Shown here: in pieces, positions 28,150-44,253 of the stretch | Position numbering within the stretch: position 1 is the first letter of the stretch | How the letters are laid out: each line of letters opens with the position of its first letter | IMG/VR virus record: IMGVR_UViG_3300032245_000624 | Source of the DNA: a virus | Taxonomy: Duplodnaviria > Heunggongvirae > Uroviricota > Caudoviricetes | Length of the DNA stretch: 64,000 nucleotides | Strand: one strand, 5' to 3' | Notes under the pieces: model-generated | Database searches by the model: none | Seen by the model: the letters and a program-made list of their open reading frames with translations, nothing else | What the model was told of the DNA's origin: nothing | Position numbers and translations under genes: made by a program

Positions 28150-29160
28150 TTATTTTTGTTCAAGATATCTTGCCGAATTCAGTTGCTCTGCTAGTCTTCT
28201 TATAGCATCAGTTCTAGTTAGACGAGTTCGAGCAAGCTCTTGTGCATTGTTGATGATATAGGATTCCAGGGCCGGATCGTTTTTAATCATGTCCACATAA
28301 TCCACAAGATCCGACAAATCTGATTTGATAGGCACATAGTGTACCCAAGGCTTGAGCCATTGGTAAAAATCTTCTTGGTAGGTTCTTGGTTCCATGAAAA
28401 GAACTCTGGGTGCATGTAGTAGAATTTTTGTACGACCAGAATATCCCCAGCCTTCTAGGTCTATTAGGAATCTCCAACGCAACACCTGATCCTTGATACT
28501 GAGCCAGTCAGCTGGAGATTCTACAATTTTGCAATCGTAATCGTGCTGAGCAGACAGAGTACAGAGATCTTTTCTACGTTGAATGATATTGGAGCCACGC
28601 CAGCCCAGAGTGTCATGCAATGCAGGAGTATCCAGTTGCTGGAGCCAATTGGTCAGTTCATCAAAGCTGTCAATATGAGCGCCACCCCATGAATCATAAA
28701 CAAAATCAGGAATACACTCATTCCATTTACTTGATCGGGTTGATGCGGAAAACACTGGGTATTTGATGTCACGAACTGAGTTGTCCGTGACTAGATTGCA
28801 TTCAGGATCCTGATATATGCCAGTACTGGCCACATCATTGGTGTAGGATCGCCAGTCTTGATCATCGTAGCAGATCATTATCCAGGAAAAGTCTGGCACT
28901 AGATATATTTTCACAGCCTGTTCAATCATGAGCTTCATGCTGTCTATACGAGATAGGATAGTAGTATCTCTAGGCACAGGCACATGATACTCCAATTGGT
29001 CATTGATCTTTCTCACGCTGAAAAAGCAACTAGCATTAGGAATAACATGCGGCGGAAGGTCTGGGTCTGGTGTTTGTAGATATAAAAAATTATCTGGCGT
29101 GCCTGCCATTGCTTCTAGATTTTTATATCCTTGTTTAGTATCGGAATGCCATTTGAACAT
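28150..29160 (-). CDS. CAP10/GT90-family glycosyltransferase-like protein
   Basis: Segment WRFLIDLEGWGYSGRTKILLHAPRVLFMEP...HYVPIKSDLSDL resembles the Glyco_transf_90 (CAP10) core. Confidence 0.6.
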   Translation of the reverse strand: MFKWHSDTKQGYKNLEAMAGTPDNFLYLQTPDPDLPPHVIPNASCFFSVRKINDQLEYHVPVPRDTTILSRIDSMKLMIEQAVKIYLVPDFSWIMICYDDQDWRSYTNDVASTGIYQDPECNLVTDNSVRDIKYPVFSASTRSSKWNECIPDFVYDSWGGAHIDSFDELTNWLQQLDTPALHDTLGWRGSNIIQRRKDLCTLSAQHDYDCKIVESPADWLSIKDQVLRWRFLIDLEGWGYSGRTKILLHAPRVLFMEPRTYQEDFYQWLKPWVHYVPIKSDLSDLVDYVDMIKNDPALESYIINNAQELARTRLTRTDAIRRLAEQLNSARYLEQK

Positions 29161-29169
29161 GCGAGTACT

Positions 29170-29194
29170 TATAACAAAGCCCCTTACGGGGCTA
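29170..29194 (-). terminator. Hairpin AGCCCCGUAAGGGGCU plus UUGUUAU (weak terminator or attenuator)
   Basis: Inverted repeat at 29177-29194. Confidence 0.4.
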
Positions 29195-29199
29195 AGTTT

Positions 29200-29394
29200 T
29201 TATTTCTTTTTAGTGTCTTTTTTTGGTTCAGGGTCCGTTGGGTTACCAGTGGTAACTTTATCTGCTTTTTTGTGAACCTTGATAGTTTTGCAAACCTGCT
29301 TGCCGTCTTTTTCGTGGCAAACTTTTTTCATTTCTGCTTCTGCGTTTGCGCCTAATGCAAACATCATGGCAATAACTGCAACTAGATATTTCAT
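29200..29394 (-). CDS. Small secreted Lys-rich protein (64 aa) with a Sec signal peptide
   Basis: Signal peptide MKYLVAVIAMMFALGANA. RBS AGGAGA 6 nt upstream. Confidence 0.55.
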   Translation of the reverse strand: MKYLVAVIAMMFALGANAEAEMKKVCHEKDGKQVCKTIKVHKKADKVTTGNPTDPEPKKDTKKK

Positions 29395-29589
29395 GGTAAT
29401 TCTCCTGGAAAGATTATGTACTAGTATTTACACCAATAAGAAAAATGGAGCTTGTTAGCCCCATTTCTCGTCGTACTTTCTAAGTGCAAGTTGCCTTGCT
29501 AACCACAATCTAAACTTCACATGGTCTGATAGTTCAGGATCTTGATCTACTATCTTACCAAATTCGCTAGCTTTTCGATTACGGCCAAA

Positions 29590-29617
29590 TGTGACCTCAT
29601 CGTCTATTATGAGGTCA
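29590..29617 (-). other. Perfect 10 bp inverted repeat GTGACCTCAT-N8-ATGAGGTCAC, just downstream of gene 29636..29851
   Basis: Seen in the sequence. Candidate RNA stem-loop, terminator or binding site. Confidence 0.45.
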
Positions 29618-29635
29618 CTGTCGTCTAGCCCAAAA

Positions 29636-29851
29636 TTACTTCGCTGGGGTAGTAGCGGCTTTTGCGTCTGCTTTAGGTGCGTCTTTCTTTGCAGACTCAC
29701 TTTTTGCAGGCTTCTTCTCGTCTTTTTTAACCTCTGCTTTAGCAGGTGCGGCTGACGCAGCCGGTGCTGGAGTTGCAGGTGCCTTGGCTGGCTCTGCGGC
29801 AAAAGCGGATAGTGCAAATGTTGTAGCAATCAATGCGATAAGTTGTTTCAT
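29636..29851 (-). CDS. Small secreted Ala/Lys/Pro-rich low-complexity protein (71 aa)
   Basis: Signal peptide MKQLIALIATTFALSAFA. RBS GGAGA. The overlapping ORF 29455..29829 in another frame is judged spurious. Confidence 0.6.
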   Translation of the reverse strand: MKQLIALIATTFALSAFAAEPAKAPATPAPAASAAPAKAEVKKDEKKPAKSESAKKDAPKADAKAATTPAK

Positions 29852-29865
29852 GTTAATCTCCTATG

Positions 29866-29887
29866 TTAGATTTGAAACTCAAGCAAG
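29866..29887 (-). promoter_or_regulatory. Second copy of the CAAGCAAG/CTTGCTTG inverted repeat (6 nt spacer), in the 5' region of the secreted-protein gene
   Basis: caagcaagaacttacttgcttg lies adjacent to a TATATA -10-like element. Confidence 0.45.
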
Positions 29888-29917
29888 AACTTACTTGCTT
29901 GTATATACAACGCCTTA

Positions 29918-30100
29918 CTACGTTCCTGCGTTGACTTGTTTGGATAAACTGATTTCGCCTGCGCCATCAATCTTCCATGTTAGTGTATCGCCGATAACCC
30001 AGCCTAGATCTTTGAGCATTTCTGGGGGTAATGGCATCATTAAATCTCCAGTGTCTGGATCTTCTTCTAATTCCACAATCCAATGCGTTTGTTTTGTCAT
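29918..30100 (-). CDS. Hypothetical protein (60 aa)
   Basis: ORF in the coupled chain. Confidence 0.4.
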   Translation of the reverse strand: MTKQTHWIVELEEDPDTGDLMMPLPPEMLKDLGWVIGDTLTWKIDGAGEISLSKQVNAGT

Positions 30101-30426
30101 TCCACTACCTTTAATTTTGGCTTGCCTTTTTTAGGTTCCGGGGGAGCAGTGTCAAGTGGAATAGATCTTTCCAACAAGGTAATTGGAAAAACAAAACTGT
30201 TTTCATTAGAGTCATCCTCAACACCAAAGTAACGCTCAAGAATTCGCCGACCAAACCATTTGTGATTGCGTATTGGCACCACTACCATGCGACTCAAAAG
30301 GTCATTTGTAGTGGCCTCATTGAGATAACCATGACGAAATAACCAATAAATGGTTTGATGCGTTTGCTCAGTTAACTGGCCCGCATGTTCGTCAATGCTA
30401 AATCGAAATGATTCAATCTTTGTCAT
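30097..30426 (-). CDS. Hypothetical protein (109 aa)
   Basis: ORF with ATGA coupling. Confidence 0.5.
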   Translation of the reverse strand: MTKIESFRFSIDEHAGQLTEQTHQTIYWLFRHGYLNEATTNDLLSRMVVVPIRNHKWFGRRILERYFGVEDDSNENSFVFPITLLERSIPLDTAPPEPKKGKPKLKVVE

Positions 30427-30849
30427 TTACTTTGTTTTTTCATAGGTTTGATTGAAGATATCTATCTTAACCACACCATAGTCGCTAGGACCGTGTCGTA
30501 CAAGAACGTCTTCTCCACTGCGGTAGTATAGCGTTTCTCCCCAACTGGTGTCAACTGATCCATCGTGGTCAGCAATCTTGGCCAACTTCACAATCTTTTT
30601 AGGATAGCACACACCCTTGCCAGCATCGTCTTTGAGTTCACGAAATTTGTTAGGGGGGATTGGATATTGTTCGCCTTTGGGTCCTGTTAGGATATAAAAG
30701 CCTTTGCGGTAGTTGACCGGACCTTCTAGAGTGTTAATAGTACCGTCTTGTTGTGCTATTTCATAGTGTTCGGGATTGGGCTTCTTGTATGCTTTGAAAC
30801 CATTACGAAACCAATCGTCATCGATTGCCGCGATCTCGTTTATTCTCAT
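30427..30849 (-). CDS. Hypothetical protein (140 aa)
   Basis: ORF. Confidence 0.5.
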   Translation of the reverse strand: MRINEIAAIDDDWFRNGFKAYKKPNPEHYEIAQQDGTINTLEGPVNYRKGFYILTGPKGEQYPIPPNKFRELKDDAGKGVCYPKKIVKLAKIADHDGSVDTSWGETLYYRSGEDVLVRHGPSDYGVVKIDIFNQTYEKTK

Positions 30850-30862
30850 AATCTTGTTACCT

Positions 30863-31153
30863 TCACTCCTGTTTTAAAACATACAATGTTACCAAGTGCG
30901 GGTCCACTGCAACCATGTCCATTGGATACTTGAGATATCCGTCACCGCGATATTTAGGACGTACTGGTTGCACCCGCAACATCTTAGGGTTTATCTTTGT
31001 TATCTGGCAGATCTGCATTCCGTGATGGCTCACTGCTACAGTCGTCCCGATCTCCAAAGGGTTTCCTAGCACATCGAAGTGTAGAGGTATCTCTTTTGTC
31101 TTGCTCATTCTTCTTTGCCTTCTTTTCAATTGGATCAGGGAAATGTGGCTCAA
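30863..31153 (-). CDS. Hypothetical protein (96 aa). Alternative to the overlapping ORF 30984..31223, and only one of the two is likely real
   Basis: Two ORFs in different frames overlap by 170 nt. Confidence 0.3.
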   Translation of the reverse strand: MSHISLIQLKRRQRRMSKTKEIPLHFDVLGNPLEIGTTVAVSHHGMQICQITKINPKMLRVQPVRPKYRGDGYLKYPMDMVAVDPHLVTLYVLKQE

Positions 31154-31223
31154 TCACATAATGATTAGCACTCCACCATCCAAACGCACTTATGAATCCA
31201 TATAAAAATATCTCAGCTACCAC
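30984..31223 (-). CDS. Hypothetical membrane protein (79 aa). Alternative to 30863..31153
   Basis: N-terminal TM helix. An 11 nt overlap with the upstream gene fits the coupling pattern of this operon. Confidence 0.35.
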   Translation of the reverse strand: MVAEIFLYGFISAFGWWSANHYVIEPHFPDPIEKKAKKNEQDKRDTSTLRCARKPFGDRDDCSSEPSRNADLPDNKDKP

Positions 31224-31413
31224 AATCCATCCTCCATGGGCATTGGCTCAACATAATTGTACTACAATCATCCTCACCAAAGCAATGAGGTTGGGAAAAT
31301 TCACTGCGCTTCAACCGGATAATGGTGTGCAGTTCTGCTCGTTCTTTTGAGTCGCCACGCCCTGTGTTAGAGAGCATGGCTTCCTCGTTAAGTAGACTCT
31401 GAATCTCTGTCAT
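31213..31413 (-). CDS. Hypothetical protein (66 aa)
   Basis: ORF. Confidence 0.4.
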   Translation of the reverse strand: MTEIQSLLNEEAMLSNTGRGDSKERAELHTIIRLKRSEFSQPHCFGEDDCSTIMLSQCPWRMDCGS

Positions 31414-31591
31414 CTTCTAGTGATTCATCAATACTAGTTGGTGGAACTTCGCTTGCCGGTGGTCTACCTGCTTTACGAGGAGCACCCCAGGGAGTAAATG
31501 ACCCACCTTCCGGTATGCCGCTTACTCCTGGTTTGATTTGCTGTATAACTCCACCATTGGCTAGAAACTCTTTAATTGCTTCATCTGTCAT
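31388..31591 (-). CDS. Hypothetical protein (67 aa)
   Basis: ORF. Confidence 0.4.
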   Translation of the reverse strand: MTDEAIKEFLANGGVIQQIKPGVSGIPEGGSFTPWGAPRKAGRPPASEVPPTSIDESLEDDRDSEST

Positions 31592-31594
31592 ATA

Positions 31595-32395
31595 TTATTT
31601 GCCATTTGTAGTCACAGTAGGAGTAACCACACCATTGATCACCAAGGTCTGCCCTTTGAACTCTGCAATAGCACGGGGCAATGCACGAACAGCGTCTGCT
31701 TCAGCTTCTGCTTTGAGCAAAGGAATTGCCATTGGGTTGGCCTGCATTGACTCATTGCGCTTCTTGGCAGTGGCCACTTTAACTTCTTCGGTCTTGAATT
31801 CGTTTTTAGCCTTAACCAATTCGTTAGCACTTTGCACAACACTGTCAGCCGGTTCAATGTTACGAATCAACACTTGGCTGATAATGATGGTGCCGTCTAG
31901 TTTTTCTTCTGCTAGTGTTTTGATCACTTGCTCTTTGATTTCAGTTTCCATGGCTTGACGAGCATCGCCCATTTCCAATGCTTCAAACTTACGTGCTGAC
32001 TTGTAGATAGCATTACGTGTGGCATTGAACACATAGTTGTACATCAAGTACACATCGCCATCATGTTTGGCGTGAAAACTCTTGTTCTTGGTGTTATAGA
32101 TCTCAGCCACTTGTGCCTGATTGATGTTGTAGGTAATCAAGGCATCAAAGTCTTTCATGGTGCTGTTGTCTTTGGCCAGCGGCGTCATGTTTTCAACTTT
32201 AACAGAGATCTCTTTGGTTGGGAATGTGATAACATCACCAATGATAGTTTGATTAAAACTACCAGGTAGCAGTTCATCGGTTTTGACCTGCTTGTCAAAG
32301 CCCACACGAAGTCCAACCTCACCTGTTTCAATACGAGTACAACCTGTAGCTAGAACAGCGGCGGCGAGAATAGACAGAGTAAAAATACGTTTCAT
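31595..32395 (-). CDS. SPFH/band-7 (prohibitin-like) domain lipoprotein
   Basis: Lipobox LATGC after the signal peptide. The GEVGLRVGF...SPFH-like region. Confidence 0.65.
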   Translation of the reverse strand: MKRIFTLSILAAAVLATGCTRIETGEVGLRVGFDKQVKTDELLPGSFNQTIIGDVITFPTKEISVKVENMTPLAKDNSTMKDFDALITYNINQAQVAEIYNTKNKSFHAKHDGDVYLMYNYVFNATRNAIYKSARKFEALEMGDARQAMETEIKEQVIKTLAEEKLDGTIIISQVLIRNIEPADSVVQSANELVKAKNEFKTEEVKVATAKKRNESMQANPMAIPLLKAEAEADAVRALPRAIAEFKGQTLVINGVVTPTVTTNGK

Positions 32396-32404
32396 TTGTG
32401 TTCC

Positions 32405-32581
32405 TTAAAATAAAATTACAAGAATGGTCATTACCAGCAGAGCCAGCAACGAAACAAGTATACTATACGCAATGGATTTTGTCAAGGTCCATCGTTCCTT
32501 GCCTTCCAACTTTCTCCAGGTTGTGATGCCTAAATGTATCAACACAGCCAATATGGCGAACACTAGCCAAAGTCTAATCAT
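32405..32581 (-). CDS. Unlisted small membrane protein (58 aa, MIRLWLVFAILAVLIHLGITTW...)
   Basis: TAATG overlap with the upstream stop. Two hydrophobic helices. Below the ORF-track size cutoff. Confidence 0.45.
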   Translation of the reverse strand: MIRLWLVFAILAVLIHLGITTWRKLEGKERWTLTKSIAYSILVSLLALLVMTILVILF

Positions 32582-32844
32582 TAGTAATTCCTTGTTAATG
32601 CGTGATAGGTTAAAAACTCTTTAAAAGCATTATAAACGATTTCTGCTTCTCGGTCATCCTGTTTCACAGGAATCCCACGAACATAAAATCCCGTTTTGGT
32701 AATCTTGAGCATTTCGCTTTTTTCAAGGTCGGGGCCAGCATGGAACACAATATTACCAGCTTCGGGCTCGTTTCCTCGCAGTACATACTTGGTATCCGGA
32801 AAGCTAGGATCGCGACTGGCACTGAGCAGTTTCTTTTTGTTCAT
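32581..32844 (-). CDS. Hypothetical protein (87 aa)
   Basis: ORF. Confidence 0.5.
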   Translation of the reverse strand: MNKKKLLSASRDPSFPDTKYVLRGNEPEAGNIVFHAGPDLEKSEMLKITKTGFYVRGIPVKQDDREAEIVYNAFKEFLTYHALTRNY

Positions 32845-33002
32845 TTGGCCATGATCCTGGCTAGAACTTCGTTGGCTTCTTTGAAGTCCTTGTAGTCTAG
32901 CACACGCTCTACAAGATCTTCTTTGAGCTGTTCCATTTGTTTAATAATAAGATTTCCGTCCCACATTGTATAGGGCTGTGTCCATTTGATCTTGTAGTTC
33001 AT
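32841..33002 (-). CDS. Unlisted small protein (53 aa, MNYKIKWTQPYTMWDGNLIIKQ...)
   Basis: ATGA overlaps at both ends (32841-32844 and 32999-33002). Confidence 0.45.
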   Translation of the reverse strand: MNYKIKWTQPYTMWDGNLIIKQMEQLKEDLVERVLDYKDFKEANEVLARIMAK

Positions 33003-33199
33003 ACTGCATCCTCAATTCCAAAGTGAATATCGTGTAGACACTGTGCCGCATCATCGTATCCATTGCTACGGAGTGTACGGATACATTGTTGGATCAATAA
33101 CTCTGCAAAACGCTGTTCAGCCTTATAACTAAAAAAGCCAAGACCAGCATCAGTTTCTTTTCGTGCCTGTAGTAATAGTTCTCTAAATTGTTCGTTCAT
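32999..33199 (-). CDS. Hypothetical protein (66 aa)
   Basis: ORF. Confidence 0.45.
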   Translation of the reverse strand: MNEQFRELLLQARKETDAGLGFFSYKAEQRFAELLIQQCIRTLRSNGYDDAAQCLHDIHFGIEDAV

Positions 33200-33444
33200 T
33201 CTTCAACTCCAAACTTGTGTTTGATTTCTGCCACACAATCCCTGCGAAAAGCATCTTCAATTTGATCACGATAATCCTTGTATCCTGGCTCTATGCCTTC
33301 TACGATGGTTACACACCGTTGCACAATCAACTTGGCAAACTTTTCATGATCAAAGTTGCTGTAGGGATTATAGCACTCTAAGGCTAGTTCTTTAATTTGT
33401 TGGTTCATCAGTTGTCCTCTGTGGATAATAGTAGGTGCAGTCAC
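33196..33444 (-). CDS. Hypothetical protein (82 aa)
   Basis: ORF. Confidence 0.45.
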   Translation of the reverse strand: MTAPTIIHRGQLMNQQIKELALECYNPYSNFDHEKFAKLIVQRCVTIVEGIEPGYKDYRDQIEDAFRRDCVAEIKHKFGVEE

Positions 33445-33613
33445 TACGGCGTATGTCCCAACTGCTGCCTAGGCCGCCCAGATGTTGTAGGCACCATCTA
33501 GCACGGTCATGTGCTTGCGGCACAGCCATGGGCCAAGGCGTGTTGTTGCGGCACTGTATGTACTGCTTGAGATAAACATAACTTTGTTCACGAGCCCACA
33601 TGATCAACTTCAT
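33392..33613 (-). CDS. Hypothetical protein (73 aa), uncertain
   Basis: Overlaps both neighbours. Confidence 0.3.
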   Translation of the reverse strand: MKLIMWAREQSYVYLKQYIQCRNNTPWPMAVPQAHDRARWCLQHLGGLGSSWDIRRSDCTYYYPQRTTDEPTN

Positions 33614-33875
33614 CTATGGGTTGATCAGGGATATTCTCAGTGTCTCCGTCCTGTGCCAACACAAAGCCCAGGTGCAACATGTCTCGCATCTGAGCCACGG
33701 TGATGCTACCACGGAAAACAAACAGTCGGCAGGTGAGATTGTCCTGGCTGTAGTAGACTCTATAGCTCACACGCTCAACACCCAGCAGGTCAGCGACCTC
33801 TTGTAGTGTAACACCGTCAGGCCAGTCTTCGGTCACGCTGTGTCGTGTTTTCTCGTAGTAGAAATCCTGCATCAT
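33588..33875 (-). CDS. Hypothetical protein (95 aa)
   Basis: ORF. Confidence 0.45.
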   Translation of the reverse strand: MMQDFYYEKTRHSVTEDWPDGVTLQEVADLLGVERVSYRVYYSQDNLTCRLFVFRGSITVAQMRDMLHLGFVLAQDGDTENIPDQPIDEVDHVGS

Positions 33876-34090
33876 AGTTCAACTCCTAACAGCCTGGCAC
33901 GATTGGTTTCGTAGATCTCGTTGAACACAATCCTAGCACTGGCGTGACTGATGGTGCCATCTTCCACTCGCTGAATTATCGTGGCCAACTCTGCAGGCGG
34001 CACCAACAAGGTCATCAACTGCCAACGCTGTGTGTCGTTCATTGTGTACGCACAATCCGTGTTACATTGGCTACACGGAAACTGCGCCAT
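33872..34090 (-). CDS. Hypothetical protein (72 aa)
   Basis: ORF. Confidence 0.45.
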   Translation of the reverse strand: MAQFPCSQCNTDCAYTMNDTQRWQLMTLLVPPAELATIIQRVEDGTISHASARIVFNEIYETNRARLLGVEL

Positions 34091-35466: not shown

Positions 35467-35671
35467 GTTCGTCCTCTAGTTCATCTTCATAGCATTTCAC
35501 AGTACCATTGCAACAATGGAAACAGGTGTAGGGCCGGCCACTTTCGTCCAGGTCCATAAACCAGCCACCACCGCATCGAGGGCAGTCTATTTCTGTGCGT
35601 TCAGCTGTCACAATTTTTCTCCAGGTGCAAATCCACGGAAGCCTTTGAATCGGGGGAAACGCAGGCTCCAT
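35447..35671 (-). CDS. Small zinc-ribbon protein (74 aa)
   Basis: CPRCGGGW...CFHCCNG. Confidence 0.45.
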   Translation of the reverse strand: MEPAFPPIQRLPWICTWRKIVTAERTEIDCPRCGGGWFMDLDESGRPYTCFHCCNGTVKCYEDELEDEHEQNNK

Positions 35672-36936
35672 TCGCCTTCACTGTCTTGATTCTGTGTAGC
35701 GGCATCTGCTCGCACTTCCACTACCTGCCCAATCACAGCCGCCTGGTCTGCCCAAATAGCATCACGCTGTGCATCAGTTAGACCCGAGCCTACGTTGGTG
35801 CGAATAGTTTTACCGTCATCCACACCTTCTACAATCAAGGCACCTAGACGTCCTGCATTTTTGCCTGTGCCTTCTTCCAAGCCTACCACAGTAAGCGATA
35901 CTTCAATAAAGGGCTTTTGCTTGAGCCAGGCCACTGTGCGTTTGGTTTCGTACTTGGCTTCTGGATCCTTGATCATAATGCCTTCATAGCCACGCTTGAT
36001 TGCAGTTTTGTTGATGTCTGCAAACAGCGCACGGCCTTCAGGCTCGTCTAAATCGACCAATTGACGTCCTACCACAGCCACATTAGGCATGTGATCTTTG
36101 ATAGCCGCATACCATACGTCCAGTGTGTGACTGCGATCCAGCTGGCGATGCTCACCACGGCCTGCTTGGAACTCACGCAGAGTCAATATGTCAAACAAGT
36201 GCAACACCGCATCACTGGCAGATACATCACTTTTACGATGCACCTGCTTCATCAAGTCTTGGAATGTGGCACTCATGATCTCGCCATCCAGTACAGTGGG
36301 TTCTGCAAAGAACACGGCATGCTTGGCAATTTGTTTTGCAATGTGATCAAAGTTTGCCAGTACCTTGCCATTGCGACTGTACATTTCAACAGAGTTGGTA
36401 GCAGGATATATCACTGTGATCACACGCACACCATCTAGTTTTACTTCAACTAGTTTTTGTCCAGTGACCTTGCTCTCGTGGTTGGCACCATCGTGTGCCA
36501 GCTGACAGCTAAACACAGGAACCGCAAAATCAGGATGTGACTTGGATACCACACTGTTTACAGTTTTTTCACTCACACCACAGCGCAGGTCCTTGATTAG
36601 AATACGTCGATACCAGTTGTTCCATTCTGTTTCTGTTGCATTAGAACGCAGAGTGTTGATAGTAAACAGAGCTTGATTACCCGTTAGTTTGCGTTCTGCC
36701 AGTTCTTGTGCAATACGCCAGAATGTTTCTGCTTTGATTCCTTTGCCGTCACCAGTCTTGGGTTCCACTTGTTTGACACCAAATGTGATCATTGAATCCA
36801 GTGCGGCACGACAGCCACGAAAGAATTCCGTGTTGCCTGCTTCCGCTTCGTTGCGGATAATCATTTCTTTTGCCAGGCGACTGTTATCTGCTTCTAGTTG
36901 AGCAATAATGTCCCATGGATCATTTAGCTTGTTCAT
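35608..36936 (-). CDS. ATP-dependent DNA ligase
   Basis: Motif I KLDGVR, motif IV EGIMIKD and motif V LKQKPF. Confidence 0.8.
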   Translation of the reverse strand: MNKLNDPWDIIAQLEADNSRLAKEMIIRNEAEAGNTEFFRGCRAALDSMITFGVKQVEPKTGDGKGIKAETFWRIAQELAERKLTGNQALFTINTLRSNATETEWNNWYRRILIKDLRCGVSEKTVNSVVSKSHPDFAVPVFSCQLAHDGANHESKVTGQKLVEVKLDGVRVITVIYPATNSVEMYSRNGKVLANFDHIAKQIAKHAVFFAEPTVLDGEIMSATFQDLMKQVHRKSDVSASDAVLHLFDILTLREFQAGRGEHRQLDRSHTLDVWYAAIKDHMPNVAVVGRQLVDLDEPEGRALFADINKTAIKRGYEGIMIKDPEAKYETKRTVAWLKQKPFIEVSLTVVGLEEGTGKNAGRLGALIVEGVDDGKTIRTNVGSGLTDAQRDAIWADQAAVIGQVVEVRADAATQNQDSEGEWSLRFPRFKGFRGFAPGEKL

Positions 36937-37875: not shown

Positions 37876-37984
37876 AATTTTCTCCTTGAATGATTAAATG
37901 ACATACTTAGGTGATGTCCTAGTATGTATCTCTATTGTACAGGCAAAAATGGTCAAATCATATCCAGGAAATCATGATTGTTGG

Positions 37985-38001: not shown

Positions 38002-38003
38002 GC

Positions 38004-38201
38004 CTATTGTTCAGATCTGCCACTGGTGCAACTGTCGTTCCAAAGGCCCTGGGCTTGCTTCTTGTACTCGTAGAGCTCAAGTTCATTCTTGTACTCGTCT
38101 TCGGTCAGGCCATGCCATCCACAGCAGTAGCCTGTGGGACTGCGACCACAACCACATCGTCCAATGTCACTGGAGTTTTCTTTTACTCGCACCTGCATCA
38201 T
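38004..38201 (-). CDS. Small Cys-rich protein (65 aa, GRCGCGRSPTGYCCGWHG)
   Basis: ATGA overlap with the upstream gene at 38198-38201. Confidence 0.45.
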   Translation of the reverse strand: MMQVRVKENSSDIGRCGCGRSPTGYCCGWHGLTEDEYKNELELYEYKKQAQGLWNDSCTSGRSEQ

Positions 38202-38599
38202 TTTCCTTTCGTGTCTTGGGCTATTTTTTTATAGCCCGACCAGCTGGGATGAACCTTGTCTGGTTGTAATCCAGTAATGGGTACCACGGTGTCATTGTGC
38301 TGTTCAGCAACTATCTTGACCATGTTTTGAATGTCGGGCTTGATAGCTGGCATGATCCAGTACACTCGATCTGCTTGTACACGAGCTCGTAGTTGTTGCA
38401 ACTCCCATATGGTTCGTACACCAGCATGATCGTTTGATCCAAGGCTAATGATAACTGTTTGACCAGTTAGTTCTTTATTGGCATATCGTTGATTCCAATC
38501 GCGACTGTTGATACCGCCTTTGCTATAACTCACACACTCAGGACGAACCTGTGCTGTGCCTACTGCTATTGAATCTCCAAGTATCAAACAATCTAACAT
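38198..38599 (-). CDS. SGNH/GDSL-family hydrolase
   Basis: Blocks LGDSIAVG, GSND and DKVHPS. Confidence 0.55.
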   Translation of the reverse strand: MLDCLILGDSIAVGTAQVRPECVSYSKGGINSRDWNQRYANKELTGQTVIISLGSNDHAGVRTIWELQQLRARVQADRVYWIMPAIKPDIQNMVKIVAEQHNDTVVPITGLQPDKVHPSWSGYKKIAQDTKGK

Positions 38600-38610
38600 T
38601 TTGTCTCCGA

Positions 38611-39117
38611 TTAACTGTTAAGAACTTTGGCAACACTATTCATAACACTGGCAATGCGGCCAATGTCACGAAGCTGTTCCACAGTGTAGCCTTCTGTCTT
38701 CAATGTTTCGTAATGTGCTTTCACACAGAAGTGACATTTGCCCACAATACTTGCGGCAAGACTAAAAGCTTCAAAGTTTGACTTTGTAGTTCCGCCATGA
38801 CTTGCGATTGCGTTCATACGCAGACCTGCTGGCAGGCCTTTAAGAGCAGGATCATCAGCCATTTCAACATAAGGATACCATACATTGTTTTGGGCCATGA
38901 TCGAGGCCGCTGTCATTGCTGACTCTGCATGTACAGGTGCGTCTGCTAGTATGACTGATAGGATTTTACCGTTGCCAGTTGCAGCCAATGACGCTACAGC
39001 ACAACCCATAGCAACATCAGCATCCAATGTACTACGCAAAAGAACAGCATCAAGATTTAACTTGGTATCTTTTGCGTAGTCTGGCAACGCTGATTTAACT
39101 GCGTCGATGAATGCCAT
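38611..39117 (-). CDS. ahpD: AhpD-like carboxymuconolactone decarboxylase-family protein (alkylhydroperoxidase)
   Basis: CHFCVKAH CxxC-H signature. Adjacent to ahpC. Confidence 0.65.
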   Translation of the reverse strand: MAFIDAVKSALPDYAKDTKLNLDAVLLRSTLDADVAMGCAVASLAATGNGKILSVILADAPVHAESAMTAASIMAQNNVWYPYVEMADDPALKGLPAGLRMNAIASHGGTTKSNFEAFSLAASIVGKCHFCVKAHYETLKTEGYTVEQLRDIGRIASVMNSVAKVLNS

Positions 39118-39656
39118 TACAATGTCTCCCCGCCTACTGTACGGTTACAAGCACATAGTTCGCCAGTTTGTAGCGCATCCAACACACGAAGTGTTTCTTC
39201 TGGGCTACGACCAACGTTCAAGTTGTTCACAGTTACGTGCTGGATAACGTTGTCTGGATCAACGATGAATGTTGCGCGAAGTGCCGCACCTGCTGGAGCA
39301 TAGAATACGCCCAACTGTTCAATCAAACTCAACTCACCACGCTGTGTGTCAGCAAACTGGTTGTGTGTGATCTTCTTCAAGTCAGCGTGGGCATTTTGCC
39401 AGCTAACCTTACAGAACTCATTGTCAGTGCTACCTGTGAGCAATACTGCGTCACGGTCGGCAAAGTCGCCTGTTAGTTTGTCGTAGGCTACAATTTCTGT
39501 AGGGCAAACAAATGTAAAGTCCTTTGGATAGTAAACAATTACTTTCCATTTACCAGCAAAGCTCTCATCTGTGATTTCAAAGAAAGCATCTTCTGGTTGT
39601 CCAGGCTTGACACCTGTGACTGCGAATTTTTCTAATTTGTGTCCAACGGTTTTCAT
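39117..39656 (-). CDS. ahpC: Peroxiredoxin (AhpC/TSA family)
   Basis: Peroxidatic motif FTFVCPTEI. 179 aa. Confidence 0.85.
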   Translation of the reverse strand: MKTVGHKLEKFAVTGVKPGQPEDAFFEITDESFAGKWKVIVYYPKDFTFVCPTEIVAYDKLTGDFADRDAVLLTGSTDNEFCKVSWQNAHADLKKITHNQFADTQRGELSLIEQLGVFYAPAGAALRATFIVDPDNVIQHVTVNNLNVGRSPEETLRVLDALQTGELCACNRTVGGETL

Positions 39657-39689
39657 ATGATTCTCCTTAAAGTAAAAAATTTATTGTAA

Positions 39690-39719
39690 ATTATAACGCA
39701 AACGCACTGATATAATCAA
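39690..39719 (-). promoter_or_regulatory. Putative promoter TTGATT-18-TATAAT for ahpC-ahpD
   Basis: Plus aatcaa at 39714-39719 and attata at 39690-39695. Confidence 0.45.
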
Positions 39720-39734
39720 ATGTTTTGGTTAAAT

Positions 39735-39830
39735 AAGTTTGTCGGGTGATTAACTGGTATGGAAGGATGCTGATCTTAACGGTTTTACCAGTTTCTCGTT
39801 AAGCCCGTCGAAAGCCAAATTCCCACCCGA
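39735..39830 (-). other. Structured intergenic RNA element with nested helices GUCGGGUG/CACCCGAC and CUUAACG/CGUUAAG, plus loop-to-downstream pairing ACUGGUA/UACCAGU (pseudoknot-like)
   Basis: Three independent inverted repeats arranged as a nested/pseudoknot topology between gene 39833 and the ahpC promoter. Confidence 0.4.
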
Positions 39831-39832
39831 CA

Positions 39833-40477
39833 TCAACGTTTCATTAGGTCATTAACAAAGTCTAGCAACAACTGATGGTGATAGCCGTTGTGATAATAAG
39901 GCTTCATGTAGTTGTGCATGTCATACCACCACTGTTCACTCTCAGGATGGCACCCCATAATTCCAATACGGTCTTGGAATATGGCCATTGGGTCACCGTT
40001 TGCATAACGGGCAACAGTGTCAAACTTACTCTCATCACCTGCTAGAGCACAGCCATCGTAGAAGTACATACGCATGTCTTCCCCCTGCCAGTTCACTGTA
40101 CAGGCCTTGGCATGTGGACGGCGTGTGTCTGTGTTTGGTTGTGTGATATACTGTACAGCATCCACACCGTCTAGAATATCAAAATAGTGCGACCCTGCCC
40201 AATAGGCACCCATGCAAATGCCTAGATAGCGGCCGCCGTCTGATATGAAGTTTTTGATTCTTTGTTCGTGATGCTTCATTAGAAAATGATAGCTTTCGCT
40301 GTCCCCATCGCCACCAGGGAAAGCCACAATGTCCACATCGTCAAAGAAATTCTTTTCCATTTCCTGCTTGGTAAAGATTTTGAATTTGTAGTACTCGCTC
40401 AGTGCCTGCATCATTCCGTTTCCACACTGTACACTTGCACGAGGCTGATAGAAAAACAAAGCAATGGTAGGTTTCAT
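39833..40477 (-). CDS. Class I glutamine-amidotransferase-like (BPL_N-like) domain protein
   Basis: VAFPGGDG...GGRYLGICMGAYWAG. Confidence 0.45.
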   Translation of the reverse strand: MKPTIALFFYQPRASVQCGNGMMQALSEYYKFKIFTKQEMEKNFFDDVDIVAFPGGDGDSESYHFLMKHHEQRIKNFISDGGRYLGICMGAYWAGSHYFDILDGVDAVQYITQPNTDTRRPHAKACTVNWQGEDMRMYFYDGCALAGDESKFDTVARYANGDPMAIFQDRIGIMGCHPESEQWWYDMHNYMKPYYHNGYHHQLLLDFVNDLMKR

Positions 40478-40485
40478 AACAGTAT

Positions 40486-40782
40486 TTACTCAGCTCTGAT
40501 TTCGCGCTTTTTTAGTTTCATTCCTGCATAGGTTCCGCAGAATGCTCCTATCACAGCAGGTATAACCAACCAGTGATTTGTGGTGTAGCTGATAACTGCC
40601 ACACTGCCCAAGATATAACAAGCCACGCTCCAAAAACTGGCACCCAGCACGTTGTCATTTGCAACACATCGCAGATAGTAGGTGTACACTATGTCCAGCA
40701 AAAATATAGATAAAAACGTTACTAGGTAGTCCATATTGGTTTTCCTTGTATAAAGAAAGGCCCCGGGGGGCCTTTGTACCAA
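40486..40782 (-). CDS. Small polytopic membrane protein (GtrA-like size; likely starts at MDYLV)
   Basis: 3-4 predicted TM helices. Confidence 0.4.
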   Translation of the reverse strand: MVQRPPGAFLYTRKTNMDYLVTFLSIFLLDIVYTYYLRCVANDNVLGASFWSVACYILGSVAVISYTTNHWLVIPAVIGAFCGTYAGMKLKKREIRAE

Positions 40783-40793
40783 TCATATTATGA

Positions 40794-41348
40794 TTAGAAG
40801 CGGTGAATATAACCAACCTTGGTGATGTTCTGCTCGCTATCGCCACGTTGACGATCGTAACCTAGGTACACAGTACTGGTCTTGTTGATATCGTAACCAA
40901 TCTTGGCACGCCAGGTACGTGTGGTATCGTTTTGACTATCTTTGAAAGCGTCTTGGAAACGATAGCCTAGTCCTGCGCTAAAGCCTAGACCCAGTCCAGC
41001 TGTAACACCTGGCTCAACTGAGTAGTAGCTATAACCTGCGCTACCACTAGAGTAATTCTCGCCGACTGCTACACGAGTGTAAACGCCAACTGGTCCAACT
41101 GGCACTGCGCCAGTAACACCTGCTTCATAGCGAGTTGCTAATGCGTTGGTGCCTTCTGTGCGATAGTTCTTGACCACGATATCGCCAGCAAAGCTGTTGT
41201 TGATTGCTTGCTTGACGCCTAGCTCGTAAACACGTTGATCAGCGGTACCATTAACGCCATTGGCGTTTTGACCTTCTAATCGTACTTCAGCGGCTGACAC
41301 GCCCAATGCGGCCATGGCTAGTAGAGTTGCTAATGCAAATTTTTTCAT
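40794..41348 (-). CDS. Outer-membrane beta-barrel protein (Ail/Lom/OmpX-like)
   Basis: Signal peptide. Alternating amphipathic strands. C-terminal YIHRF ends in Phe. Confidence 0.6.
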   Translation of the reverse strand: MKKFALATLLAMAALGVSAAEVRLEGQNANGVNGTADQRVYELGVKQAINNSFAGDIVVKNYRTEGTNALATRYEAGVTGAVPVGPVGVYTRVAVGENYSSGSAGYSYYSVEPGVTAGLGLGFSAGLGYRFQDAFKDSQNDTTRTWRAKIGYDINKTSTVYLGYDRQRGDSEQNITKVGYIHRF

Positions 41349-41370
41349 TTAATTTCCTTTATTGAAAAAC

Positions 41371-41422
41371 AGTGATTGAGATCACTAGAGCAAGTATATA
41401 TGTTGTGCCCTAGTAAAGTCAA
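41371..41422 (-). promoter_or_regulatory. Promoter TTGACT-18-TATACT with the palindrome AGTGAT-TGAG-ATCACT (41371-41386) between -10 and the RBS
   Basis: Plus agtcaa at 41417-41422 and agtata at 41393-41398. Perfect 6 bp arms. Confidence 0.5.
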
Positions 41423-41424
41423 AA

Positions 41425-41452
41425 GAAAGACAACCGAAGTTGTCTTGCCTGC
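41425..41452 (-). terminator. Rho-independent terminator (AAGACAACUUCGGUUGUCUU plus UCUUUUG)
   Basis: Hairpin plus U-tract downstream of the GT1 gene. Confidence 0.65.
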
Positions 41453-41526
41453 TGGTTACGAGTTCCAGCGCCACTCCATCTTTGTGGTCGATTAAAATTA
41501 TTTATCTTTAAGTGGGTAGTTAATTG

Positions 41527-42531
41527 TTACGACTTTGTTACAAGATTGTCTCGGAAGATTTCCCAGGCCCGTTCCCAACTCCATCTGGCACTGCCTTCCC
41601 AAACACGTTGTCGGTCCAGCATGAGTGCATCTTTCACAGCCTGCTTTAGGTCATCATTCAAACAGCCAGTAACACCTTCGTCCACAACATCCAGCGGCCC
41701 CTGTACAGGAAAAGCCGCTACTGGTGTACCGCATGCCATGGCTTCGACCATCACAAGGCCAAATGTTTCCCATTGGCTAGGAAACACAAATACTTCTGCA
41801 TTGGCATAGTAACGTGCTAGGTCCACACCTGTTTTATAGCCGGTGAAATGCACATCAGGGTATTGCTTGCGATAGGTCTCGAGCATAGGGCCATCGCCTA
41901 CCATGACTTTGAGATATCCAGGGTAGTCTAATTCAAAGAACTTTTCAAGATTCTTTTCTTTGCTCACACGACTCACGCACAGCAGATATCTGCTCACAGT
42001 TTCTACTCTGTGGGTAGGATTAAAAATGTCACGGTCAACACCACGAGTCCACGGAATCACTTCGCCGTCGAATCCATGTGCTTGTAATTCATCAACCATG
42101 GAGTCAGTGGTGGTCAACACCTTGCCCGAGTGCTTGTGGAACCAGCGCACTAGAGGCCAAGTAAGAGCCTCAGGTATTCCAAACAGCTTTCTAATTCCTT
42201 CTGGAAACTTAGTATGATAAGCAGTGTTGTAGCGATAACCGTGTTGGTCAAGATATTGTCTAGCACACAGACCCAAAGGACCTTCTGTGGCGATATGGAT
42301 ATGATCCGGATTGATCTCCTCAAATATCTTGCCCACCGTGCGTTTCCTGGTAAGGGTAATCTTGACTTCGTTGTAGCGAGGGCAATCAACATAGCGGAAC
42401 CGCCCGGGATCAAGATATACAACACGATAGTTGTCGCGAATCGCAAGCGCCTCAATATTTTTGTAGGTCGTAACCACACCATTGATCTGATCCTTTAGGT
42501 TATCTGTTACGATTAAGATTGTTTTTGACAT
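41527..42531 (-). CDS. Group 1 (GT4-like) glycosyltransferase
   Basis: EAMACGTPVAAFPVQGPLDVVDEGVTGCL matches E-x7-E. Confidence 0.75.
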   Translation of the reverse strand: MSKTILIVTDNLKDQINGVVTTYKNIEALAIRDNYRVVYLDPGRFRYVDCPRYNEVKITLTRKRTVGKIFEEINPDHIHIATEGPLGLCARQYLDQHGYRYNTAYHTKFPEGIRKLFGIPEALTWPLVRWFHKHSGKVLTTTDSMVDELQAHGFDGEVIPWTRGVDRDIFNPTHRVETVSRYLLCVSRVSKEKNLEKFFELDYPGYLKVMVGDGPMLETYRKQYPDVHFTGYKTGVDLARYYANAEVFVFPSQWETFGLVMVEAMACGTPVAAFPVQGPLDVVDEGVTGCLNDDLKQAVKDALMLDRQRVWEGSARWSWERAWEIFRDNLVTKS

Positions 42532-42731
42532 TTTGATACTACCTTGAATGATTCAAATTTTAACCAGTATTTTAGACTGCTACGAGCTTGTTCGCAAGCC
42601 TGCTGGCTTTCAAACTCCAGAGTCACTTGTCCTGGATTGTCCTTTGGATCGTTTACGTGTACTGCTAGGATTATCAATAACCACATTGTCACTCTCCTTG
42701 GTCCAGGTAACGATCTCCCAACGACCGTCAT
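42513..42731 (-). CDS. Hypothetical small exported protein (72 aa), uncertain
   Basis: Overlaps the LpxH-like gene in another frame. Confidence 0.3.
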   Translation of the reverse strand: MTVVGRSLPGPRRVTMWLLIILAVHVNDPKDNPGQVTLEFESQQACEQARSSLKYWLKFESFKVVSKCQKQS

Positions 42732-43440
42732 GATGTTCTACCAGTGCTGTGCATGATTCAACCCAGTCGCCGTCATTCATGTACACAATACCGTCTATGA
42801 GTTTTATTTCTGCGTGGTGTATATGACCGCAGACCACGCCATCAAATCCTCGCTTTTTGCAATAGGCTGCGAGGTTCCGTTCAAATTGGAAAATAAAGTC
42901 AACTGCTTTTTTGACCCTACCTTTAAGATACTGGCTAAGACTCCAATAACCAAAACCCATACGATGGCGGATCCAATTAAATTTATTATTAAGTGATAGG
43001 ATAAAATCATACGCTTTGTCTCCCAAAAAGCTGAGCCAAGGTGCTAGTCTGGTAATGCCGTCAAACATGTCACCGTGCGTGACCAGATAGTGCTTGCCGT
43101 CTGCGCCTATGTGCTCGCATTGATTACACACTTCAATCAGACCAAAGCCAATGCCCAGGGGTATAAGCGGTCTTAGGAATTCATCATGGTTGCCTGCAAC
43201 ATAAACCACACGGGTGCCGCGCTTGGCATGACCCATGACTCTGCGTACCACATTGGTATGTGATTGTTTCCATCGCCATTTGTTTTGTTGTATGCGCCAT
43301 GCGTCAATTATATCCCCTACCATGTAGAGTGTTTCGCATGTGTTGTGTTTGAGAAAGTTGTTGAGTTGTTCCGCCTTGCAGTCTCTAGTGCCAAGGTGGA
43401 CATCACTGATAAAGATTGAGCGGTAAGTTTTAGCTGTCAT
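42610..43440 (-). CDS. LpxH-like (UDP-2,3-diacylglucosamine hydrolase-like) metallophosphoesterase
   Basis: IFISDVHLG...GNHDE. Confidence 0.7.
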   Translation of the reverse strand: MTAKTYRSIFISDVHLGTRDCKAEQLNNFLKHNTCETLYMVGDIIDAWRIQQNKWRWKQSHTNVVRRVMGHAKRGTRVVYVAGNHDEFLRPLIPLGIGFGLIEVCNQCEHIGADGKHYLVTHGDMFDGITRLAPWLSFLGDKAYDFILSLNNKFNWIRHRMGFGYWSLSQYLKGRVKKAVDFIFQFERNLAAYCKKRGFDGVVCGHIHHAEIKLIDGIVYMNDGDWVESCTALVEHHDGRWEIVTWTKESDNVVIDNPSSTRKRSKGQSRTSDSGV

Positions 43441-43485
43441 TCTAATATTTACCGCCCAATCCGTTAAAAAAGTGTTACAGTTACG

Positions 43486-43644
43486 TTACACTCTGACAAG
43501 AATCCACTTGGCTGTAAATGGTTTACCTTCGGCCTTATGTTTCAGTATCTTAGAGAACTCTTTTTTACGGAGCTCAGAAATTGTTTCTGTATCATGGTCG
43601 ACGCAAGCCCTGTACAGTTTAGCGAGTAGCTTTTTCTGTTTCAT
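43486..43644 (-). CDS. Unlisted small protein (52 aa, MKQKKLLAKLYRACVDHDTE...)
   Basis: Strong RBS AAGGAGG. Confidence 0.45.
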   Translation of the reverse strand: MKQKKLLAKLYRACVDHDTETISELRKKEFSKILKHKAEGKPFTAKWILVRV

Positions 43645-43668
43645 GGTTGTGTCCTCCTTGACAAATAT

Positions 43669-44253
43669 TTACCAGATTTTTTTGATTCTTTCAAGAATTA
43701 GTTCTACCACACGATTACTAATTACCACTTCGTAGTGATTGAGTTCTAGTTCTACTAGCTCAAAGTCTAGCCTAGCTCTCATGCTTTCCAGTGTGACTAC
43801 TCCATCATTGGGTTCGTGAATCCATGGACTGCCGCCGCGGGTAGTCACAACATTGGTCCAGTTTGGCGGTGCTGATAGTCGTTTGGCTTCTGCCATGGGC
43901 TTGGCCTGCGGACCAATGTCCTTCATCAATTGATTAAATGGTAGAAAGTATTTGGCAAAGTCTGCTTGTCTACTTCCACCGTAGGGTGTGCTAAGACTTA
44001 TACCACCCACTGTGCGATCTTTGTAATAGTTTGCCAAATGCAATGCGTAGATGCCACCCAGGCTGTGACTGATAAAGAACAGTTGTTCTGCGTCATCCAG
44101 TTGTCCTTTCATCTCAGCTAGGTTATAATCAAACCCATCCGCACTGTTGTACTCAAATGCAATGTCTGGAACTTCCACATGATCTCTTACAAACTGTCGA
44201 ATGTGTGTGAAACTTTCTGATGTGGCGCTGGCACCATGTATGTAGACTATCAT
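43669..44253 (-). CDS. Alpha/beta-hydrolase (esterase/lipase-like)
   Basis: Nucleophile elbow ISHSLGG (GxSxG). Confidence 0.6.
   Translation of the reverse strand: MIVYIHGASATSESFTHIRQFVRDHVEVPDIAFEYNSADGFDYNLAEMKGQLDDAEQLFFISHSLGGIYALHLANYYKDRTVGGISLSTPYGGSRQADFAKYFLPFNQLMKDIGPQAKPMAEAKRLSAPPNWTNVVTTRGGSPWIHEPNDGVVTLESMRARLDFELVELELNHYEVVISNRVVELILERIKKIW

Follow-up and report, generated by a model that had tools for sequence, protein, structure and literature searches.

Known lipid renovation systems and the phage locus

In bacteria, the replacement of phospholipids by phosphorus-free lipids is an established response to phosphorus scarcity and has so far been viewed as a trait of the cell. 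This membrane lipid renovation is started under phosphorus stress by the phospholipase C PlcP (PMC4796936, PMC8528852), and the commonest neighbourhood of plcP has an agt homologue downstream (PMC4796936). Upon expression of PA3218 of Pseudomonas aeruginosa in Escherichia coli, monoglucosyl-diacylglycerol was formed, and the PA3218 protein shares 41% identity with the Agt of Phaeobacter MED193 (PMC8528852). Here, a stretch of 64,000 nucleotides from a virus of the Caudoviricetes (IMG/VR record IMGVR_UViG_3300032245_000624), further called the window, was analysed. It carries two neighbouring genes on the minus strand, plcP (42610..43440) and agt (41527..42531), which appear to encode members of the same two enzyme families.

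The described bacterial PlcP-Agt systems are those of Sinorhizobium meliloti (SMc00171), Phaeobacter (MED193_17359), SAR11 HTCC7211 (PB7211_983/960) and P. aeruginosa (PA3219/PA3218). The phage locus resembles them in the order plcP-then-agt, in the intact metallophosphoesterase motifs and in the E-x7-E motif of the GT4 glycosyltransferase, with 49–56% identity for PlcP and 40% for Agt. It differs in being phage-borne, in belonging to a tight phage group (at least 79% mutual identity, no more than 59% with the recovered bacterial sequences), in having an overlapping gene of 57 amino acids and no detected Pho box, and in the GT2/GT21-like partner found in most relatives. With the phosphorus-stress genes (pstS, phoH) and lipid genes (cyanophage desaturases) of other phages, the pair has in common that host-derived metabolic genes are carried by aquatic phages; it differs from them in that a two-enzyme replacement of the lipid head group would be involved and not uptake or desaturation.

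A literature search yielded no report of a phage-encoded PlcP-Agt module or of phage lipid renovation. The patatin-like phospholipase in a marine megaphage paper is a different enzyme. In a viral metatranscriptome of Lake Baikal, 'lpxH' is listed under lipopolysaccharide (LPS) biosynthesis (PMC9611531), and in a study of HIMB59 an LpxH-annotated gene beside a glycosyltransferase in a phosphate island was treated as a lipid A enzyme (PMC10734472); judged from its description, the latter gene may be of the same family as PlcP. The pathway is known in bacteria, and pstS and desaturase genes are known in phages; new are a bacterial operon that phages seem to have held for a long time, the added 57-amino-acid gene and the GT2 partner.

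A preliminary description of the window had interpreted positions 28,150 to 44,253 as a cell-envelope island, a toolkit for LPS and outer-membrane modification and superinfection exclusion, in which plcP was read as an LpxH-like phosphoesterase of the lipid A pathway and agt as a GT1 transferase.

Identification of plcP

The predicted product of plcP (276 aa), a metallophosphoesterase-type phospholipase C by homology, contains a Metallophos Pfam domain (41.9 bits). It was found to be 56% identical to the PA3219-locus protein of P. aeruginosa (E 2e-95) and 49% identical to the SMc00171-locus protein of S. meliloti (E 4e-87, residues 2-249 covered). Both references were located by tblastn of a plasmid collection, which includes some chromosomal records. 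At the P. aeruginosa locus, the PlcP homologue is followed by a glycosyltransferase gene abutting a convergent adenylate cyclase gene, which we take to be cyaB (PA3217), and the locus was taken as PA3219/PA3218. The S. meliloti locus adjoins the quorum-sensing genes sinR/sinI, presumably the position of SMc00171. Between the two references the identity is 47%, close to the 46% published for PA3219 and the S. meliloti PlcP (PMC8528852), which is consistent with the assignment of both loci.

In the literature, a BLAST E-value below 1e-40 with the Phaeobacter MED193 PlcP as query has been used to recognise PlcP (PMC4796936); the E-values of the window protein against the PA3219- and SMc00171-locus proteins lie far below this value. 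The metallophosphoesterase motifs (DxH, GD, GNHD/E, H, GH, GHxH) are all intact, and residues D13, H15, G42, D43, G83, N84, H85, H122, G205, H206 and H208 were invariant in an alignment of 17 phage and bacterial sequences. These similarities place the protein in the PlcP family and make its predicted enzymatic identity well supported.

LpxH (UDP-2,3-diacylglucosamine diphosphatase) belongs to the same superfamily, its N-terminal motifs align with those of PlcP, and database pipelines give proteins of the window type the name LpxH. The C-terminal half, however, does not align. The window protein scored 43.2 bits with the LpxH equivalog NF003743 (cut-off 134) and 30.6 bits with TIGR01854 (cut-off 190), the alignments being confined to residues 7-126 in the N-terminal half. 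A PDB sequence search against the P. aeruginosa LpxH structures gave an E-value of only 0.002, confined to the N-terminal half. With both equivalogs missed widely, the C-terminal half unaligned and 49–56% identity to PlcPs, an identity as LpxH was rejected; of the earlier reading the metallophosphoesterase was retained and the lipid A role was not. In the PDB, no solved structure of PlcP or Agt was matched by sequence, and PHROGs holds no family for PlcP, Agt or several other proteins of the interval discussed below (the barrel protein, GT90, BPL_N and the hydrolases).

The protein database contained at least 8000 matches to the window PlcP, the best 120 of which were 80–92% identical, and in IMG/VR more than 600 contigs, some of 345–367 kb, carried a PlcP relative with at least 79% identity. 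Bacterial sequences were recovered by a scan of one genome per species over 185,579 species; the best 80 plcP matches, which form the bacterial comparison set, were 48–59% identical to phage PlcP. The identity of at least 79% across more than 600 contigs, with invariant catalytic residues, points to strong purifying selection on phage PlcP.

Identification of agt

The predicted product of agt (334 aa), a GT4 diacylglycerol glycosyltransferase homologue, scored 85.7 bits with the Pfam domain Glycos_transf_1 and 53 bits with Glyco_transf_4. Over its full length it is 40% identical to Agt1 of P. aeruginosa, the PA3218-locus protein (331 residues, E 9e-83), and its E-x7-E motif reads ETFGLVMVE. 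The best NCBIfam matches were lipid glycosyltransferases, all below cut-off; LPS glycosyltransferase equivalogs scored 23–26 bits against cut-offs of 385–618. The glycosyltransferase domains of the supposed GT1 transferase were confirmed in this way, while its LPS role was not.

The gene begins 78 nt past the plcP stop codon, in the plcP-then-agt order of bacteria. Among 75 of the nearest bacterial loci, 53 have an Agt-like GT4 directly downstream of plcP, 37–47% identical to the window Agt. As far as sequence can tell, the protein is a member of the Agt family of diacylglycerol glycosyltransferases.

Relatives of the window

All long open reading frames (ORFs) of the window lie on the minus strand, and the G+C content is about 44–46%. 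Comparison of the 16-kb interval with 50,697 phage records by megablast gave no match, and the ATP-dependent DNA ligase of the interval (35608-36936) shares only 35% identity with that of SPO1-like phages. In L001, a JGI contig of 345 kb, the gene string of window positions ~38–50 kb recurs with 64–98% amino-acid identity. PlcP (89%) and Agt (82%) are better conserved between window and L001 than the DNA ligase (74%) and an outer-membrane barrel protein (40%). The plcP-agt pair also recurs on L004, an ENA contig of 513 kb, and L001 and L004 both carry phage genes, among them a rIIB-like gene, GP38 and thymidylate synthase. Proteins identical (100%) to the barrel protein and the GT90 glycosyltransferase of the window were found on a 101-kb ENA scaffold, ERZ28594238 (KRAE22-1 scaffold_46). 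Since the close relatives are metagenome contigs only, of up to 513 kb, the window is assigned to a very large, uncultured phage group.

The hosts of this group are likely of the Betaproteobacteria type. Just upstream of plcP in a viral contig of 207 kb (L033, 5450-5595), the small RNA motif 'Polynucleobacter-1' was detected (RF01718, 102 bits). Together with a tmRNA of the betaproteobacterial type, described below, and a G+C content of ~45%, it hints at Polynucleobacter-like hosts for some of the relatives.

For the analysis of gene neighbourhoods, 80 viral plcP loci were used; counts of downstream genes refer to the 75 with enough downstream sequence.

The overlapping gene p57 and the organisation of the unit

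A conserved ORF of 57 aa, named p57 (42513..42686, minus strand), was found in the +1 frame between plcP and agt. It overlaps the variable tail of PlcP by 77 nt and the start of agt by 19 nt, and its start is preceded in the window by an AAGGAG Shine-Dalgarno sequence. The ORF was present in 75 of the 80 viral loci, with an ATG start in 73 of these and a length of 56–58 aa in 71. Entropy by codon position decreases from the third over the first to the second position, as for a coding frame, and residues M1, W2, A8, D16, P18, C31 and C53 are invariant. No p57 was detected at any of the 80 plcP loci of the bacterial comparison set. The protein has no match in Pfam, and a structure model made from the single sequence reached a pLDDT of 62, too weak for a structural search. 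A mechanically listed ORF of 72 aa (42513-42731) was rejected, as stop codons occur upstream in relatives; the true start is the internal ATG at 42686. In Pelagibacter phage Mosig, a small hydrophobic ORF, also of 72 aa, overlaps the 3' end of the plcP homologue (L009 4692-4910); no homology between this ORF and p57 was found.

Directly upstream of plcP lies a small basic ORF, p52 (43486..43644, minus strand), which has no family match; homologues with 58–90% identity occur directly 5' of plcP in about 29 of the 80 viral loci. It is preceded by a gene for an alpha/beta hydrolase of 194 aa (43669..44253, minus strand) with an HSLGG nucleophile elbow (Abhydrolase_6, 31 bits), as had been proposed in the preliminary description. 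Comparison of this protein with PDB sequences gave insignificant lipase-like matches only, and homologues lie at most 6 kb from plcP in about 11–15 viral loci, often on the opposite strand.

A terminator-like hairpin, AAGACAAC-TTCG-GTTGTCTT followed by a T run, is located after agt (41427..41446, minus strand), and a matching terminator-like hairpin (44275-44294) after the upstream tmRNA gene. Between both hairpins, five genes are arranged on the minus strand from 44253 to 41527: the alpha/beta hydrolase gene, which is probably the first gene of the transcription unit, p52, plcP, p57 and agt.

Gene neighbourhood of plcP in related phages

In the viral loci, plcP-p57 is followed directly by a GT4 gene in 24 of 75 and by a gene for a GT2/GT21-like glycosyltransferase of 238 aa in 44. 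In five more loci a GT4 gene lies within 1.5 kb, and something else follows in two; altogether, 73 of the 75 loci have a GT4 or GT2 gene immediately behind plcP-p57 or no more than 1.5 kb away.

Further neighbours were identified by clustering all ORFs of the related loci. A bona fide PstS (413 bits, cut-off 339) is encoded in eight of the 80 loci. In six of these (L065 at 4897-5907, L046, L057, L067, L069 and L088), pstS lies directly upstream of plcP-p57-glycosyltransferase on the same strand. The PstS of L065 scored above both PstS equivalog cut-offs, and the other copies are 54–66% identical to it. A tblastn search with the PstS of phage Mosig gave nothing in the window or the relatives; the pstS genes of the relatives surfaced by neighbourhood clustering only. 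A secreted protein of the SNase (staphylococcal-nuclease-like) type is encoded at most 6 kb from plcP in 14 of the 80 loci (e.g. L050 783-1223) and may represent another phosphorus-scavenging function.

A fatty-acid desaturase of the DesA family is encoded in 20 of the 80 loci (L013 7894-8607 and 19 others; in L004 at 6475-7185), often directly after the glycosyltransferase, with scores of 396 bits in NCBIfam (cut-off 400) and 53 bits in Pfam. The window itself carries an alkyl-hydroperoxide reductase pair, missed in the preliminary description: ahpD (38611-39117, minus strand; CMD 39 bits, AhpD-family 125 bits, below cut-off) and ahpC (39117-39656, minus strand; AhpC-TSA 72 bits). AhpC and AhpD are 98% and 92% identical in L001, among the best-conserved proteins of the region. 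In 13 of the 80 loci, ahpC/ahpD genes occur no more than 6 kb away from plcP; L004 has rubrerythrin and rubredoxin genes at the equivalent position.

Two cultured phages have a lone plcP homologue, annotated as LpxH in both. In Pelagibacter phage Mosig it adjoins a phosphate ABC transporter gene and in Synechococcus phage S-SRM01 it lies near a peroxiredoxin gene.

Proposed function of the module

The substrates, products and phosphorus benefit set out here are what we infer from the observed family identity, catalytic motifs, gene order, conservation and linkage to glycosyltransferase, pstS and desaturase genes. PlcP, as a Mn/metal-dependent enzyme of the LpxH-related metallophosphoesterase superfamily, would cut the phospho-headgroup from glycerophospholipids of the host, yielding diacylglycerol. 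Agt would then glycosylate the diacylglycerol from a UDP-sugar, and the product would be a glycolipid that lacks phosphorus, of the monoglucosyl- or glucuronosyl-diacylglycerol type. The bilayer of the infected cell would be kept, and lipid phosphorus would be freed for the synthesis of phage nucleotides and DNA, with p57 as an added third component of the module. A double-stranded genome of 350 kb needs, by simple arithmetic, about 7×10^5 phosphorus atoms, and membrane lipid is a sizeable pool of cellular phosphorus. Because the relatives reach 345–513 kb, phosphorus supply would matter to these phages, and the linkage to pstS supports it as the benefit.

Phages of this group probably rebuild the membrane of their host, and the most likely purpose is to free phosphorus. 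That an auxiliary PlcP-Agt module of the phage turns host phospholipid into glycolipid and so releases phosphorus for phage synthesis is put forward with moderate confidence. The wider proposal is more tentative and falls somewhat short of an even chance: in widely sampled uncultured phages, plcP, p57 and a glycosyltransferase gene of the GT4 or GT2 type, with pstS in front or a desaturase gene behind in some genomes, would form a module that strips phosphorus from the phospholipids of the host membrane and substitutes glycolipids, with p57 as a new accessory factor.

Several points weigh against phosphorus release by the module. The support for the phage copies is sequence-based, and the locus tags PA3219 and SMc00171 are assigned from gene context. 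The GT2 partner, which is the majority form, had no characterised diacylglycerol-glycosylating homologue among its matches. A search of the window for pstS, a desaturase or another gene of the phosphorus regulon found none, and pstS occurs together with plcP in only about 10% of the related loci. The commoner neighbours, AhpC/AhpD, desaturase and rubrerythrin, point to membrane or oxidative-stress physiology and not to phosphorus. No Pho box was found near plcP, the six matches in the window being at chance level; phage promoters need not carry one, and Pho-box control is a regulatory feature of bacterial plcP operons, not of the enzyme itself.

The same chemistry of PlcP and glycosyltransferase could bring another benefit, a retuning of the membrane during a long infection. 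Its target could be the fluidity of the membrane, its resistance to damage by oxidants or peptides, the moment of lysis, or the exclusion of competing phages at adsorption and DNA entry. The desaturase and peroxiredoxin neighbours (20 and 13 of the 80 loci, with rubrerythrin and rubredoxin in L004), together with the absence of a phosphorus-acquisition gene from the window, keep this explanation standing. In P. aeruginosa, these glycolipids give protection from a last-resort antibiotic (PMC8528852), and an effect of lipid renovation on phage receptors has been suggested (PMC9804370). Phosphorus supply is favoured over retuning by six independent loci of huge phages in which pstS immediately precedes plcP, by the phosphate transporter gene beside plcP in Mosig and by the description of the bacterial pathway as a phosphorus-stress response (PMC4796936, PMC8528852). 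In addition, nine envelope candidates of the window gave no match to a known defence or exclusion family in PADLOC. Retuning as the benefit is considered possible, though rather unlikely.

According to the preliminary description, an LpxH-type enzyme, LPS glycosyltransferases and an Ail/Lom-type protein would act together to modify LPS and the outer membrane and to exclude superinfecting phages. Public pipelines do call the enzyme LpxH, the Lake Baikal study has an 'lpxH' entry under LPS biosynthesis (PMC9611531), genuine exported proteins, lipoproteins and a beta-barrel are present, and both GT90 and GT4 are glycosyltransferases. The LpxH equivalogs, however, are widely missed and align over the N-terminal half alone, whereas the identity to characterised PlcPs is 49–56%. 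The GT4 shares 40% identity with an enzyme proven to be a diacylglycerol glucosyltransferase and is far from the LPS equivalogs (23–26 against 385–618 bits). The barrel has no Ail_Lom match and 10 strands, not eight, and relatives do not keep these genes together as a syntenic set. Superinfection exclusion found nothing in its support in any test, PADLOC included. By these family tests such a toolkit appears largely refuted, and we regard it as very improbable. What stands, without the LPS specifics, is the broader notion of phage-encoded functions that act on the envelope of the host.

A recent capture of the genes from a host, as passengers (morons) without a role in infection and together only by accident, is hardly credible, for although the region is a variable accessory zone and GT90 is rare, the phage PlcPs share at least 79% identity among themselves and no more than 59% with the 80 best bacterial matches, which argues for an old acquisition under selection, the added overlapping gene p57 is conserved, and PlcP and Agt are better conserved than the DNA ligase.

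Other genes of the 28–44 kb interval

The remaining envelope genes of the interval were compared with protein families, and most domain assignments of the preliminary description were confirmed in searches with hidden Markov models; Ail/Lom, GtrA and LpxH failed, and the SGNH hydrolase stayed below its cut-off. The GT90 (CAP10-like) glycosyltransferase (28150..29160, minus strand) matched Glyco_transf_90 with 65.1 bits (cut-off 24) over residues 130-316. It is rare and sporadic, with 20 homologues in 5.8 billion proteins, all with PF05686, and distant eukaryotic relatives. After the identical copy on ERZ28594238, the next-best homologue shares 40% identity and lies on a contig of 355 kb. Two small lysine-rich ORFs (29200-29394 and 29636-29851, minus strand) have signal-peptide-like N-termini, read from the translations, in agreement with the small secreted peptides described before; neither has a family match.

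An SPFH/Band-7 lipoprotein (31595-32395, minus strand), likewise recognised earlier, was confirmed with Band_7 (63 bits, cut-off 23.6) and PHROG_200 'lipoprotein' (E 8e-30), and its signal peptide ends in LATGC. It is accompanied by a membrane partner of 58 aa (32405-32581, minus strand), and both recur together in L023 and L046. A neighbouring protein of 67 aa (31388-31591, minus strand) contains a SutA RNA-polymerase-binding domain (SutA-RBD, 31.7 bits, cut-off 29.3) and may be a phage modulator of the host RNA polymerase.

The presumed SGNH hydrolase is a short SGNH/GDSL-like protein of 133 aa (38198..38599, minus strand). Its GDS, GSND and DxxH blocks are readable in the sequence; the family score (Lipase_GDSL_2, 24.8 bits) is below the cut-off of 32.9, and the assignment is weak. 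The GATase1-like protein was borne out as a class-I glutamine-amidotransferase-like/BPL_N protein (39833..40477, minus strand; BPL_N 44.8 bits) with GICMG and HPE motifs; its gene lies at most 6 kb from plcP in about 21 of the 80 viral loci, in either orientation. Adjoining it, also in relatives, is the gene for a small membrane protein with three hydrophobic segments (40486..40734, minus strand) and no family match. This protein had been called GtrA-sized. Judged by a family match, a length of ~120 aa and four transmembrane helices, GtrA was abandoned: no GtrA match was obtained at E<=10, with TauE at chance level only, and the protein, annotated with 82 aa on the public contig of identical sequence, is probably of that length, starting with MDYLV.

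Next to agt, a small outer-membrane beta-barrel protein of 184 aa with a signal peptide and a C-terminal F is encoded (40794..41348, minus strand; Porin_4 29 bits, OMP_b-brl 13.5 bits). It resembles the eight-stranded Ail/Lom/OmpX proteins, such as lambda Lom, in being a small phage outer-membrane barrel with signal peptide and C-terminal aromatic residue, and it has its own promoter-like site. It differs from them in the absence of an Ail_Lom Pfam match (E<=10), in its 10 predicted strands (AlphaFold model, pLDDT 92) and in its nearest folds, the best PDB matches in Foldseek being FapF, the designed 10-strand barrel TMB10 and KdgM, and neither Ail nor OmpX appearing among the first 50. The Ail/Lom identity was rejected on the missing family match and the number of strands; the prediction of an outer-membrane barrel was kept. 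The protein is poorly conserved, as its identity to the L001 homologue indicates. A sigma-70-like site, TTGACT-18-TATACT (41393-41422, minus strand), precedes the gene, by consensus match only, and just downstream of it lies the 6+6 bp palindrome AGTGAT-ctca-ATCACT (41371-41386, minus strand), the operator-like element noticed earlier. Being short, it could be due to chance.

The interval also contains the genes for the DNA ligase and the SutA-RBD protein mentioned above and for MazG, a SWIM-like ORF, an LPD29 ORF, an AbrB/MazE-like protein, a PGDYG protein and about 15 small ORFs, none of them listed in the preliminary description. The accessory genes of the interval are shuffled, replaced or missing in relatives. 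As the envelope genes are real and yet interspersed with unrelated ones such as ligase, MazG and AhpC/AhpD, the term 'island' overstates their coherence; GT90, SPFH, barrel, AhpC/AhpD, SGNH and GATase-like genes are a shuffled accessory mosaic and not one pathway.

The tmRNA and the second lipoprotein cluster

Upstream of the alpha/beta hydrolase gene, a two-piece (permuted) tmRNA of the betaproteobacterial type was found (44273-44743, minus strand), with its own promoter-like site and terminator. It scored 112 bits with Rfam RF04321 and 86.5 bits with RF01850. The tag predicted by ARAGORN, AKANTQTGVKVTVAKGFRFGGSKVAATEAAFA, is unusually long, because the usual stop position reads GCUAAA and not GCxUAA. 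The same tmRNA lies upstream of plcP in seven of 10 relatives checked. tmRNAs in huge phages are already known (PMC7162821).

A second cluster at 60.4-63.3 kb, 16 kb from the interval, was also confirmed, with three lipobox proteins, two exported proteins and a glycine-zipper protein (Rick_17kDa_Anti, 31 bits). The ORFs 60431-61408 and 62709-63047 (minus strand) are over-extended at the 5' end and likely have internal Met starts, followed by the lipoprotein signal peptides MKKMKRLIITASILTALTGC and MKSLIVLVLVALTGC; the first protein has weak matches to LPAM_1 and LPP20. The cluster lies beside genes for a ClpP protease (265 bits) and a SprT-like metalloprotease (59225-60406, minus strand). The phage ClpP and the phage tmRNA with its atypical tag may be connected. 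No evidence was seen for a link of GT90, SPFH or the 60–63 kb cluster with either the plcP module or superinfection exclusion.

The ORFs 54089-55531 and 55533-57458 (minus strand) were rejected as rIIA/rIIB, the products being a dCMP-deaminase/GNAT fusion and a GP88-domain protein. A rIIB-like annotation was found only for the L001 homologue of 47309-48154.

Implications

Within an abundant group of large uncultured phages, the putative PlcP-Agt pair ranks among the accessory modules with the highest conservation. It has been hidden there under the name LpxH, and p57 is a new small protein. If the proposed function is true, studies that count these genes as auxiliary genes of LPS biosynthesis would need correction. 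Environmental ratios of glycolipid to phospholipid, and counts of plcP used as markers of phosphorus stress, would need reinterpretation. In natural waters, viruses would account for some of the glycolipid signal ascribed to 'phosphorus stress'. For the phages themselves it would mean that infection reshapes the membrane lipids of the host and recycles lipid phosphorus into viral DNA.

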